Shown here one piece after another: positions 4,394-6,957 of a stretch of DNA of 64,000 bases. Where the stretch lies: sequence record PZ151149.1; one strand, 5' to 3'. The notes beneath the pieces were generated by a model. That model saw only the letters and a program-made list of their open reading frames with translations. It was not told the DNA's origin and did not search any database. The position numbers and the translations under genes are program-made. Position 1 is the first letter of the stretch. Every line of letters begins with the position of its first letter. Source of the DNA: a phage.

Positions 4394-4732
4394 TTATTCT
4401 CCTTTCTTGAACAAATTGCGAAGCCAGTATACAAACGGGATTTCTTTAAACTTGAATTTCTCTATAGTTAATTCTTTAGTAGCAAGATGAATACCATAAG
4501 AATCATGTGTCACGATATGCCATTTTCTATAGTCCAAATGTGAACAACCATTTGAATCTAGGTTAATAATAGTTTCTCGCTCACTAGGATTGTTTTTCCA
4601 CGATTTTGTAATCGGATCGCACATAATTCGACCTAGCGTACCATGAATAATCTCGCATTTGTAAACCTTTCCGGCAGTGATATAAGCGCAACCGTCATAG
4701 TCGGTATAAACAAACACTTCTTTAACACTCAT
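4394..4732 (-). CDS. hypothetical protein, member of local 3-gene paralog family
   Basis: Shares NGCSHLDYRKW motif with next two genes; RBS AAAGGAG upstream of ATG 4732. Confidence 0.55.
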   Translation of the reverse strand: MSVKEVFVYTDYDGCAYITAGKVYKCEIIHGTLGRIMCDPITKSWKNNPSERETIINLDSNGCSHLDYRKWHIVTHDSYGIHLATKELTIEKFKFKEIPFVYWLRNLFKKGE

Positions 4733-4757
4733 TTTAATACTCCTTTGTAGTTTCGAT

Positions 4758-4798
4758 GGGGGTATATTACTACCCCCGTTTTGACGTGTCAACTACTT
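4758..4798 (-). promoter_or_regulatory. early sigma70-type promoter (TTGACA-17-TAATAT)
   Basis: -35 at 4787..4792 (rc TTGACA), -10 at 4764..4769 (rc TAATAT); -10 embedded in palindrome GGGGGTA..TACCCCC. Confidence 0.45.
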
Positions 4799-5038
4799 TT
4801 TCAAGAATTTTTTGAGTACATTCCAAAGACCTTTATTCTCGGCTTGTTTTGGTTCTTCGATCAGTGTCCATGTTCGACCGTCTAAGTGTGCACAATTTTT
4901 AAGGCAAATAAAAATCTGGTGTCCCTTATCATCACGGATATAACCACTATTCGCAAATCTTTCATGTGGTGTATATTCATACAGTGTATTCGGTGTAATA
5001 TACTTGCGGTTACTATAAGGTGTCGTTACATATTTCAT
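4793..5038 (-). CDS. hypothetical protein, paralog family
   Basis: ITPNTLYEYTP...GYIRDD...CAHLDGRTW pattern shared with 5035..5229. Confidence 0.55.
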   Translation of the reverse strand: MKYVTTPYSNRKYITPNTLYEYTPHERFANSGYIRDDKGHQIFICLKNCAHLDGRTWTLIEEPKQAENKGLWNVLKKFLKK

Positions 5039-5229
5039 GGTACTAACTCCCAACGATCACCGCGAAGATGAGAACATCCACCATCAAGAAGGATCGTAAT
5101 ACGAAACCCCGCATCATCTTCAATATACCCGATAGTCGGTGGATGTTCGTCGTCTCGTGTCGGGGTAAAATCATACATCTTTCCCGGTGTGATATCATTG
5201 CCTTTATTGCTATTGGTATAAACTTGCAT
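5035..5229 (-). CDS. hypothetical protein, paralog family
   Basis: ITPGKMYDFTP...GYIEDD...CSHLRGDRW pattern. Confidence 0.55.
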   Translation of the reverse strand: MQVYTNSNKGNDITPGKMYDFTPTRDDEHPPTIGYIEDDAGFRITILLDGGCSHLRGDRWELVP

Positions 5230-5250: not shown

Positions 5251-5949
5251 CTAACCACGGGTATAGTGTTCCAGAACAACGGTCAGATGAATATATTCTA
5301 ATAAATCTTTCCAAAAGTCAACATCTGGTTCTTCCGGCATACCGTTTTTCTTTGCCTCTTCACGCGCGAGTTTAACACGCTCGTAGAGATCTTTCAATTC
5401 TTCCCGCACATTATCAAAGGTTCTTTCTCCTAACTTACACGCTAAAATAGAAGAACGTCGCGCGAGAGGGAATTGTAGATCACCAGTCTGATAGATTTCA
5501 AGTAGCTGATAACCAACACGCAGAGCATGAGAAAGGTCTTTCCAGTTACTGAAATACTTTTCAGATTTGGCTACCTGCTTTTTGAGATAACCGGAGCACC
5601 CCCACATACCAACATGATAGAATTTATCGCGATGTGTTCGGATGTATTCCCATTCTCTGGAGGATTCAATCAACATGTTACTAGGCGCGTGCACCATGTC
5701 AATAGCGCCGATATCACCTTTACATGCCAGATTGATAAACCGTTTTAGACTGAACATATTAACGTCAATATCGTCTTTGGTGTTCTTGATACCTTGACCG
5801 CTAGTGCTTTGGTCATAGTGTTCTTTCATCGATCCTAAGATAATTTCTTTCGCAGTCGGAACAAAGATACCACGATAATCTTTATCGGAATTTTCAGTAT
5901 CAAGGCCGTATAAGTGAGATCCGAAGACCATTTTAACCATTGTATGCAT
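5251..5949 (-). CDS. Pol-beta-superfamily nucleotidyltransferase
   Basis: N-terminal FGSHLYGLDTENSDKDYRG (GS...DxD nucleotidyltransferase signature) followed by helical C-terminal region. Confidence 0.6.
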   Translation of the reverse strand: MHTMVKMVFGSHLYGLDTENSDKDYRGIFVPTAKEIILGSMKEHYDQSTSGQGIKNTKDDIDVNMFSLKRFINLACKGDIGAIDMVHAPSNMLIESSREWEYIRTHRDKFYHVGMWGCSGYLKKQVAKSEKYFSNWKDLSHALRVGYQLLEIYQTGDLQFPLARRSSILACKLGERTFDNVREELKDLYERVKLAREEAKKNGMPEEPDVDFWKDLLEYIHLTVVLEHYTRG

Positions 5950-5962
5950 AATTAAACCCTCA

Positions 5963-6493
5963 TTAGTATTTTACGTTACGTCGAACGCCTTTTCGAATCT
6001 GACAAATAGCAGACGGTGAAACATTATATTTTCTTGCAAGTTCTACACCCTTCATATGGGGAGAAGATAAAATCTCTTCCACTTGGTCGTCGGTAAGTTT
6101 TGCGTTTCCGTGGTTCTCTCCCCAATTGTTGTTTAATCCTTCTTCCTTCGCATGAACAAGATTTCGGGTATCTGTCGTCCATTCAAGATTATAAAGGTCA
6201 TAGTTTTGTTTGTTTCCATCCTTATGATTAACTACACGGTAGTTATTTGGATTCGGAATAAACGCAACCGCCATAGCTTTATGCATGTTCACGGTTTTTC
6301 TAAATCCATCCGGCTTATAACATACTGTAAATTTAGAATAACCAGTTTTACCATAAACACTAATATAATTTCCGGTCTCTGTATTTCTAACCCTACCATG
6401 AGAGCTAATCTCAAATTGAGTGTAGGGCAACAGCGCATCAATCACTTTCCATTCTTCGACAGGATGGTCATCACAATATCTTTTAATCATCAT
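5963..6493 (-). CDS. HNH homing endonuclease (NUMOD4-like N-term, HNH, C-terminal HTH)
   Basis: EISSHGRVRN, VNHKDGNKQNYDLYNLEW, and C-terminal helix-turn-helix LARKYNVSPSAICQIRKG. Confidence 0.8.
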   Translation of the reverse strand: MMIKRYCDDHPVEEWKVIDALLPYTQFEISSHGRVRNTETGNYISVYGKTGYSKFTVCYKPDGFRKTVNMHKAMAVAFIPNPNNYRVVNHKDGNKQNYDLYNLEWTTDTRNLVHAKEEGLNNNWGENHGNAKLTDDQVEEILSSPHMKGVELARKYNVSPSAICQIRKGVRRNVKY

Positions 6494-6509
6494 ATCACCT
6501 CATAAAAAT

Positions 6510-6540
6510 AAAGCCAACCCTTTCGGATTGGCTTAAAAAA
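6510..6540 (-). terminator. intrinsic terminator
   Basis: AGCCAACCC-TTTCGG-ATTGGCT hairpin with T-rich tail on minus strand, directly after 6541 stop. Confidence 0.5.
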
Positions 6541-6957
6541 TTACATTGCTTCCGTAAAGGTGCGCGAAATAACGTCACGTTGTTGGTCTGGAGTCAGACT
6601 ATTGAATCTTACGGCATATCCGCTAACGCGAATGGTTAGTTGCGGATACTTATCAGGATTAGCAACCGCATCAAGAAGAAGATCGCGACTCATCACATTG
6701 ATATTCGCGTGCTGACCACCTTCGACAACCGGAGCGCCATTATCTACAACAACCGGACGGAAGCTAGTTGTGTGCAGTGCCAGCGAATCGACGTCTTCGG
6801 CGGTGATCACATGTTCTTCTGCGAAAGTTTTACTAACAATTACTTTAGCGCCGATCAGTGCTTTCGGTTCGGATACCAGAATCATAGGCGCGAAGTGTCC
6901 ACCGATAATAGTACCTTTATGCTCACCTTTCATGATTTGAATTGCTTTAAATTCCAT
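6541..6957 (-). CDS. grcA: autonomous glycyl radical cofactor (GrcA/YfiD-like; T4 Y06I-type)
   Basis: C-terminus [11 protein letters not shown]...[33 protein letters not shown] is near-identical to the GrcA glycyl-radical motif. Confidence 0.85.

Follow-up and report, generated by a model that had tools for sequence, protein, structure and literature searches.

The nrdC.11 locus

The stretch of phage DNA analysed here, 64,000 nucleotides of sequence record PZ151149.1 and referred to below as the window, carries on its minus strand an open reading frame (ORF) that is clearly a real gene and that, judged by its sequence, is almost certainly the Krischvirus orthologue of T4 nrdC.11, encoding a catalytically intact, Pol-beta-fold nucleotidyltransferase (NTase) of the RlaP family (PF10127). 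The window is RB49-like Krischvirus DNA, and over 4 kb around the gene it shares 95-96.5% identity with the Krischvirus phages Whisky, 011D4, JSE, RB49 and Phi1. The gene itself has 95-96% nucleotide identity to its counterparts in RB49, JSE and Whisky, which carry the annotation nrdC.11. In RB49 the orthologue is RB49p098, entered as gene nrdC.11 with the product 'nucleotidyltransferase' and the record note 'similar to T4 tk.-11'; JSE is annotated in the same way, and Phi1 also names the gene nrdC.11. T4 nrdC.11 (T4p095; NP_049709.1; NC_000866.4, 55435-56445) encodes a protein of 336 amino acids that is likewise annotated 'nucleotidyltransferase' and that the window protein matches in BLASTP at E = 1e-50. 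The original prediction for this gene, made from the DNA letters alone, took T4 to lack such a gene and presumed it to be novel; the T4 orthologue and the names already given in RB49, JSE and Phi1 overturn both points.

A public protein cluster is 99% identical to the window protein (E = 1e-153), and a search of 1.84 billion representative proteins finds 3,564 relatives at E <= 1e-3. The ratio of nonsynonymous to synonymous substitution rates (dN/dS, Nei-Gojobori method) is 0.045-0.06 among the window, RB49 and JSE alleles, and ~0.17, with dS saturated, between the window gene and a 57%-identical metagenomic relative. The gene is under strong purifying selection, and because of this the short protein that it encodes can be regarded as functional. 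The block TGAGGGTTTAATTATG around the Shine-Dalgarno sequence is identical in RB49, although the sequence further upstream differs. Two plus-strand ORFs that overlap nrdC.11 (5527-5748 and 5642-5797), as well as promoter-like matches within the gene, had no supporting evidence and were set aside. Coordinates of the features discussed below are collected in Table 1.

Table 1. Features of the nrdC.11 gene, its product and its flanks, in window coordinates
Feature	Position	Strand	Basis or remark
Krischvirus nrdC.11 orthologue, complete coding sequence (232 amino acids + stop)	5251..5949	minus	ATG-initiated ORF listing
Shine-Dalgarno sequence GAGGG	5957-5961	minus	7 nt 5' of the nrdC.11 ATG, read from the sequence
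FGSHLYGLDTENSDKDYRG, residues 9-27: hG[GS] motif (G10, S11) and first two putative catalytic carboxylates (D22, D24), start of strand beta-2	5869..5925	minus	
NTKDDID, residues 56-62: conserved acidic loop leading into a strand	5764..5784	minus	Alignment, AlphaFold2 model
D84, in motif (A/L)(I/L)DM(V/L)H on helix 80-87: further acidic residue of the NTase domain	5698..5700	minus	
Insert junction, residues 129-135 (SEKYFSN), where T4-type NrdC.11 has a ~100-residue alpha/beta insert	5545..5565	minus	Alignments, BLASTP, model
C-terminal all-helical domain, residues 116-230 (KNTase-C/HEPN-like bundle)	5260..5604	minus	
Three tandem paralogous small ORFs (64, ~81-86 and ~112-132 amino acids)	5035-5229, 4793-5053, 4394-4792	minus	Between nrdC.11 and regB
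Freestanding HNH homing endonuclease	5963-6493	minus	NUMOD4 and HNH_3 at or just below Pfam cut-offs; phrog_59, 1.5e-36
Strong terminator-like hairpin AAGCCAATCCGAAAGGGTTGGCTT, then a T-run, right after vs.6	6489-6534	minus	Consensus match only
vs.6, 138 amino acids, C-terminal Pfam glycine-radical domain (E = 4.9e-15)	6541-6957	minus	

Relatives of the gene occur in 1,584 of the 50,697 phage records searched by tblastn, in phages mainly of Escherichia, Klebsiella, Shigella, Aeromonas and Acinetobacter, with some in Mycobacterium and Bacillus phages, among which one record bears the annotation 'RlaP RNA repair protein'. A match of nrdC.11 orthologues to the nucleotidyltransferase family COG3541 was reported in 2006 (PMC1524935). 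Many GenBank and UniRef records call the 336-residue NrdC.11 orthologue 'thioredoxin', and one calls it a 'putative HNH homing endonuclease'; because all of these proteins carry PF10127, the names look like errors that spread from the neighbouring genes nrdC and mobD.

An RlaP-family nucleotidyltransferase

Membership of the RlaP family ('RNA repair pathway DNA polymerase beta family') is indicated by a PF10127 match of 53.1 bits (E = 4.7e-14; curated gathering cut-off, 23 bits), in which residues 7-191 align to profile positions 24-198 of 249 as one unbroken stretch, and the same domain is present in all 120 homologues among the matches listed. PHROG 388, 'nucleotidyltransferase', is matched at E = 4.9e-80, the match being split into two stretches, and an NCBIfam search of the protein returned no family. 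The original prediction had placed the protein in the Pol-beta superfamily of NTases, naming PF10127 as one candidate family and setting conservation of the DxD residues in homologues as a test beforehand. Each of these expectations is borne out, in that PF10127 lies above its cut-off and is a family with an acidic catalytic set, and the GS...DxD residues prove to be essentially invariant. The motif itself is present in the 232-residue protein exactly as reported, residues 9-27 reading FGSHLYGLDTENSDKDYRG, and the helical C-terminal half that had been proposed is seen in the AlphaFold2 model as long helices within residues 116-230.

Conservation of individual residues was counted in 148 family representatives clustered at 50% identity. 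G10, S11, D22, D24, D60, D62 and D84 are 92-100% identical across this set: G10, S11, D22 and D24 are 98-100% conserved, N56 and D60 are each 97% identical, D62 is 98% identical and 100% acidic, and D84 is 92% identical and 98% acidic. The positions of the five aspartates D22, D24, D60, D62 and D84 carry an acidic residue in 97-100% of representatives, and a basic residue stands in 91-100% of them at R26, K55, R107, K128, K131, K137, R144 and K172. Two alignments of phage homologues, of 16 and 43 sequences, show no variation at G10, S11, D22, D24, N56, D60, D62 and D84, nor at W100, Y111, G120, Y121, W136, K137, H141, R144, P161, K172, G174 and W213. D60 and D62 are candidates for the third metal-binding carboxylate, and K128, K131, K137, H141, R144 and K172 are presumed to line a cleft for nucleoside triphosphate (NTP) and RNA. 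A canonical RlaP of 255 residues from Bacillus tequilensis, which matches PF10127 model positions 19-248, is collinear with the window protein at 28% identity and keeps the GS, DxD and NTKDDxD motifs together with K137, H141 and R144.

Where the window protein has D60, the T4 reference allele encodes Asn (AAT) and RB27 has the codon GAT. The residue is Asp in all 158 homologues that match the motif NTKDxID, in 97% of the representatives, and in the Krischvirus protein, in contrast to the T4 reference allele; the T4 record also has an ambiguous base (N) at nucleotide 303 of nrdC.11. The T4 D60N difference would be either an old sequencing error or a laboratory T4 allele altered at a putative catalytic residue.

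The AlphaFold2 model of the window protein (predicted local distance difference test, pLDDT, 91.4; predicted TM-score, pTM, 0.87) consists of an NTase domain followed by a helical domain, with residues 1-110 folded into strands and short helices, and long helices spanning 116-131, 136-155, 165-172, 178-201 and 210-230. In the model G10 and S11 fall between strand 2-9 and a short helix, and D22 and D24 at the start of strand 24-30, and the conserved NTKDD lies in a flexible loop (49-61) of low pLDDT (~56) that leads into strand 62-67, which begins with D62. The crystal structure of the Pseudomonas fluorescens enzyme PfRlaP has an N-terminal NTase domain, a C-terminal helical domain and a last helix that packs back onto the NTase domain (PMC12776372); in the secondary structure of the model, an NTase core precedes a helical domain (116-201), which leads to a terminal helix (210-230). 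Sequence searches of the Protein Data Bank (PDB) with the single sequence and with a 43-sequence profile, against a set without the PfRlaP structure, returned only spurious matches to haemoglobin and SAMTOR. Among structures compared by Foldseek, the best matches were to the ANT(4')/kanamycin nucleotidyltransferases and to HalB of the Hailong system (E ~1e-4, TM-scores 0.38-0.48), and these reflect a likeness between families within the Pol-beta fold, not membership of either.

Other NTase classes fit the protein poorly. It had been distinguished at the outset from the minimal NTase antitoxins of ~100 amino acids, and with 232 residues and a fused helical domain the distinction holds; an MNT antitoxin of a HEPN-MNT module, a single domain of ~100-140 residues, was rejected on these grounds and because there is no adjacent HEPN gene, and the MNT structure 7ae9 gave a weak, partial Foldseek match. 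A CD-NTase or cGAS-like signalling NTase was also rejected, there being no profile match to this class and no member of it among the structural neighbours. A PADLOC search gave only a non-significant CARF/HEPN match (E = 0.028) and no CD-NTase or other defence family, and assignment to defence or anti-defence signalling was rejected for want of a significant match. The earlier suggestion of a role in making or modifying a nucleotide signal consequently loses its footing, with no significant PADLOC match, no CD-NTase structural neighbour and no effector-like gene nearby.

A short form without the NrdC.11 insert

Nearly all phage homologues are 300-345 amino acids long, as against the 232 of the window protein, and the difference lies in a single internal segment. 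The BLASTP alignment with T4 NrdC.11 falls into two collinear blocks flanking a gap of ~100 residues (tblastn against T4-like genomes gives ~45% identity across both blocks), and the ~100 extra residues of T4-type proteins fall between query residues ~131 and ~136. The insert has a length of 8 residues in the window protein, compared to 68-131 in 143 of the 148 representatives. An AlphaFold2 model of a T4-type protein (pLDDT 87) places the extra module at residues ~131-240, as a separate alpha/beta unit of helices 137-149, 171-177 and 213-235 and five strands that sits between two helices of the C-terminal domain. The catalytic and basic signature residues are all shared with T4 NrdC.11, but the 336-residue T4 protein has a ~100-residue module that includes a YGVKGSR segment, and the 232-residue Krischvirus protein has neither. 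The PF10127 model covers only the N-terminal part of most T4-type proteins, whereas its match to the short form is contiguous; therefore, the insert is specific to the NrdC.11 clade. As aligned, the short form has the canonical length and collinear layout of an RlaP, and the window protein is a short variant inside the phrog_388 group rather than a non-member.

The insert is absent from five of the 148 representatives, which occupy four places on a neighbour-joining tree, each next to insert-bearing sequences. The tree is weak, being star-like with long terminal branches, and the case for independent losses rests on the deletion junctions, which differ ('AKSEKYFS|NWK', 'AKENKV|IDWK', 'KYGIKGSKLEEAQK|INWK' and 'KYGLKG|IDWK'). 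Because of these differences, at least four independent losses of the insert appear to have taken place. Another close short form (57% identity) shows the same synteny as the window gene and, for this reason, comes from a divergent Krischvirus-like phage.

Genomic neighbourhood

In order of transcription, the genes on the same strand are endolysin, vs.8, vs.6, a terminator-like hairpin, the HNH homing endonuclease, nrdC.11, three small ORFs and regB, so that in Krischvirus regB lies four genes downstream of nrdC.11 in one co-oriented cluster. The three small ORFs share the motif ITPGKxY...GYIxDDxGxxIxIxL...C[SA]HLxGRxW and match phrog_6261 or phrog_15978 ('unknown function'), with no Pfam match. 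The vs.6 product is named 'autonomous glycyl radical cofactor' or 'pyruvate formate-lyase' in several related phage records.

Compared to RB49, the HNH homing endonuclease is a clean insertion, with the conserved terminator region of vs.6 on one side and the ribosome-binding site of nrdC.11 on the other, and it is found also in JSE, Whisky, 011D4, phiS and a divergent metagenomic relative. The hairpin overlaps a promoter-like site, again a consensus match only, that consists of TTGGCT, a 17-nt spacer and TATGAT with an upstream TG, and the -10 element of this site overlaps the endonuclease ATG. RB49 keeps the hairpin and most of the promoter-like sequence, and there the site would be just upstream of nrdC.11. 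In T4 as in Krischvirus, nrdC.11 lies in an early, co-oriented accessory region with a freestanding homing endonuclease immediately upstream, although the neighbours differ, being nrdC.10 and mobD in T4 and vs.6 and regB in Krischvirus. The T4 endonuclease is mobD, directly upstream of nrdC.11 (995-1774 in a segment where nrdC.11 is 1-1011), and it is unrelated to the Krischvirus HNH enzyme (BLASTP E = 1.2). Because unrelated endonucleases thus lie directly upstream of nrdC.11 in the two groups of phage, the 5' flank of the gene may be a recurrent homing site.

Genes for RNA repair are present elsewhere in RB49, which encodes the polynucleotide kinase/phosphatase pseT, the RNA ligase 1 gene rnlA and a second, small 'polynucleotide kinase' (RB49p229), as well as 57B, annotated in the record as an RNA ligase, ~7 kb from nrdC.11. 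Healing and sealing steps would therefore be available in trans. The neighbourhood of RNA-ligase and repair genes that gave RlaP its name, and which is true of some members of the family, is not seen at the window locus, and no tRNA genes lie within the window.

The bacterial context of the family was sampled in one scan of genome contigs that yielded 78 loci, the nearest relatives being mostly on contigs of metagenome-assembled genomes or at chromosomal loci. On a Bacillus tequilensis ATCC BAA-819 contig (2500-10000), RlaP lies amid a prophage-like replication module with an SNF2 helicase, an HTH_36 protein and an IstB-like loader; from this one locus, the Bacillaceae matches of the scan may be prophage-borne. 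At a Flagellimonas locus the two neighbouring ORFs scanned encode a NadR-like NTase/NUDIX protein and a cytosine methylase. Linkage to RtcB was not reproduced for the nrdC.11 branch within the ~4 kb scanned in Bacillus tequilensis or in the two Flagellimonas ORFs.

A proposed role in the repair of tRNAs missing a nucleotide

What RlaP enzymes do is known from a study by Carruthers, Fatma and Huang (bioRxiv, December 2025) of two Pseudomonas RlaPs encoded between rtcB and rtcA, PfRlaP and P. aeruginosa PaRlaP (PMC12776372). Both label RNA only, not DNA or protein, require a 3'-OH, and add one or two nucleoside monophosphates (NMPs) with little NTP specificity, accepting dATP and preferring Mn2+ or Co2+ (PMC12776372). 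The favoured substrate is the 3'-OH of the 5' half in a nicked tRNA mimic, and rRNA-sized and full-length tRNA-sized species in total E. coli RNA, as well as single-stranded RNAs, are also labelled (PMC12776372). Treatment with RlaP before ligation raises the aminoacylation of a tRNA missing one anticodon-loop nucleotide, and the enzyme was proposed to counter 'smart' ribotoxins, RloC among them, that follow their cut by removing a nucleotide (PMC12776372). The nucleotide that RloC removes is the wobble nucleotide, and this lesion has been proposed to defeat repair by phage Pnk and Rnl (PMC2610378). Comparative genomics of jumbo phages had led to the prediction that RlaPs of phages put lost nucleotides back ahead of ligation, and the distribution of RlaPs in those phages mirrors that of RNA ligases (PMC7824862). 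T4 NrdC.11 has been placed in the same Pfam family, in cluster 5 of a sequence similarity network (PMC12776372).

The window protein shares with the bacterial enzymes its Pfam family, a length in the range of ~230-255 residues, a contiguous PF10127 match, the conserved aspartates and, in its predicted model, the succession of N-terminal NTase domain, C-terminal helical domain and terminal helix. By analogy, it is expected to carry out the Mn2+-dependent addition of one or two NMPs to an RNA 3'-OH. In the mechanism we favour, two divalent metals, probably Mn2+, would be held by D22, D24 and D60/D62, and a broken RNA would receive on its 3'-OH one or two untemplated NMPs taken from NTPs. The substrate, preferably the 5' fragment left by a cut in the anticodon loop of a tRNA, would be bound in a cleft that the NTase domain forms with the basic C-terminal helical domain (K128, K131, K137, H141, R144, K172). 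During infection the enzyme would work in trans with PseT, which heals ends, and RnlA, which seals them, both encoded elsewhere in the genome, so that the nucleotide excised by an RloC-type anticodon nuclease is put back and a fraction of the religated tRNA may be functional again. We give this reading, an RNA 3'-end fill-in enzyme that acts with PseT and RnlA to repair tRNAs missing a nucleotide, a probability of about 0.5, because it is transferred from distantly related bacterial enzymes and draws on untested predictions.

Several considerations weigh against it. RlaP activity is known from PfRlaP and PaRlaP, bacterial enzymes only, which fall in cluster 1a of the similarity network as opposed to cluster 5 for T4 NrdC.11, itself called 'of unknown function' (PMC12776372). 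The window protein has just 28% identity even to a canonical prophage RlaP, and it lacks the YGxKGSR-like segment and the insert of most phage homologues, such that its substrate range might differ. The window gene stands in no rtcB-rtcA or other RNA-ligase operon: no RNA ligase is linked in cis to nrdC.11, rnlA and pseT of RB49 being ~75 kb away, and none lies within ~4 kb of the Bacillus tequilensis RlaP in a scan of ORFs of at least 90 amino acids. Untemplated addition with little NTP specificity would leave only a minority of repaired tRNAs correct, as the authors of the biochemical study acknowledge (PMC12776372). Finally, T4 tolerates loss of the nrdC.11-mobD.3 segment (PMC9825161). Any benefit of nrdC.11 must therefore be conditional, and the tolerated deletion fits a conditional, defence-related role without proving one.

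One other reading, which we consider unlikely, is that the enzyme tails RNA for decay or processing, adding a nucleotide or two at the 3'-OH of host RNAs or of early phage mRNA fragments, for example those cut by RegB and dephosphorylated by PseT, and thereby creating a toehold for 3' exonucleases or a block to religation in the control of mRNA turnover. In Krischvirus only the three small paralogous ORFs separate nrdC.11 from regB, and the labelling of rRNA-sized, full-length tRNA and single-stranded RNA by bacterial RlaPs implies an activity that is not intrinsically repair-specific. T4 polynucleotide kinase acts on RegB-cut mRNAs, triggering their decay. However, the proximity of regB is not conserved, T4 nrdC.11 being found in another block, beside mobD and nrdC.10; an untemplated addition of one or two nucleotides is a poor toehold; and no data tie RlaP to RNA decay, the linkage that gave the family its name being to RNA ligases.

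The CCA end of tRNA, where the original prediction located repair, is quite an unlikely target. A relaxed, CCA-adding-like enzyme that replaces nucleotides trimmed by a defence system or toxin would agree with the addition of one or two NMPs to RNA 3'-OH ends by the family and with the labelling of full-length tRNA-sized species in total E. coli RNA, and damaged host tRNAs could not be replaced from the window, which is without tRNA genes. Yet in the nicked tRNA mimic annealing makes the 3' half, which bears the acceptor end, a worse substrate and the anticodon-loop 3'-OH a better one, the correct CCA would rarely be rebuilt with so little NTP specificity, and the host CCA-adding enzyme already does the job. 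The broader idea, tRNA repair against host defences, survives in that it agrees with a role predicted for the family and in part demonstrated for it (PMC12776372, PMC7824862), but the end extended in those experiments is the 3'-OH of the 5' fragment of a cleaved tRNA and not primarily the CCA end.

It is very unlikely, in our estimate, that the NrdC.11 insert serves as a module to target substrates or bind a partner and that enzymes lacking it act on a different substrate, at the extreme making HalB-like oligonucleotide decoys against a DNA- or oligonucleotide-gated defence instead of filling in tRNA. We see still less prospect for the synthesis of oligonucleotides or signals against defence in general, whether by an oligo(d)A synthase resembling HalB and possibly primed from a tyrosine, which would top up the DNA signal that holds the Hailong HalA channel closed, or by a modifier of immune nucleotide signals. 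The likeness to HalB (PDB 9dbh, 9dbi, 9dbj) is one of fold only, with no sequence relationship detectable in single-sequence or profile searches, no HalA-like partner at the window locus and no PADLOC match. HalB makes long DNA primed from its C-terminal tyrosine, in contrast to the one or two additions to RNA of the RlaP family, and PfRlaP, which stops at that point, labels neither protein nor DNA. A Tyr does occur within the last eight residues of 64% of homologues, compared to 34% expected, and the window protein has Y229; nevertheless, in the 148 representatives the Tyr is not invariant and the tails that carry it do not align, leaving the family without a conserved priming residue. Equally remote is the nucleotidylylation of a small molecule or protein, by an adenylyltransferase like ANT or KNTase or by an AMPylase of the MNT kind acting to neutralise a HEPN RNase. 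The top Foldseek matches of the window protein are ANT(4') aminoglycoside nucleotidyltransferases (E ~6e-5), which, like related aminoglycoside or lincosamide NTases, have the same Pol-beta NTase core and helical bundle, and its C-terminal domain resembles HEPN bundles; however, the TM-scores are ~0.4 at 10-13% identity in an architecture common to many NTases, ANT(4') belongs to another Pfam family with small-molecule substrates, bacterial RlaPs labelled no proteins, no HEPN partner gene lies near nrdC.11, and aminoglycoside modification has no obvious use for a lytic phage.

Significance

RefSeq annotation, the COG3541 match of 2006, the 2021 prediction for phage RlaPs and the biochemistry of December 2025 have between them already made known the gene, the family and the proposed role; the short architecture, a minor variant, is of more practical than conceptual value. 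Repeated loss of the insert defines a dispensable module, for whose function long and short forms can be compared. The T4 reference allele, with D60N, may be a poor choice for assays of NrdC.11, and the 232-residue Krischvirus protein, with a confident model, canonical RlaP length and an acidic site that appears intact, is a compact test candidate. Whether phages can reverse the wobble-excising lesion of RloC-type anticodon nucleases has been a question since 2008, and it is to this question that the tRNA repair proposed here for the Krischvirus enzyme would speak.

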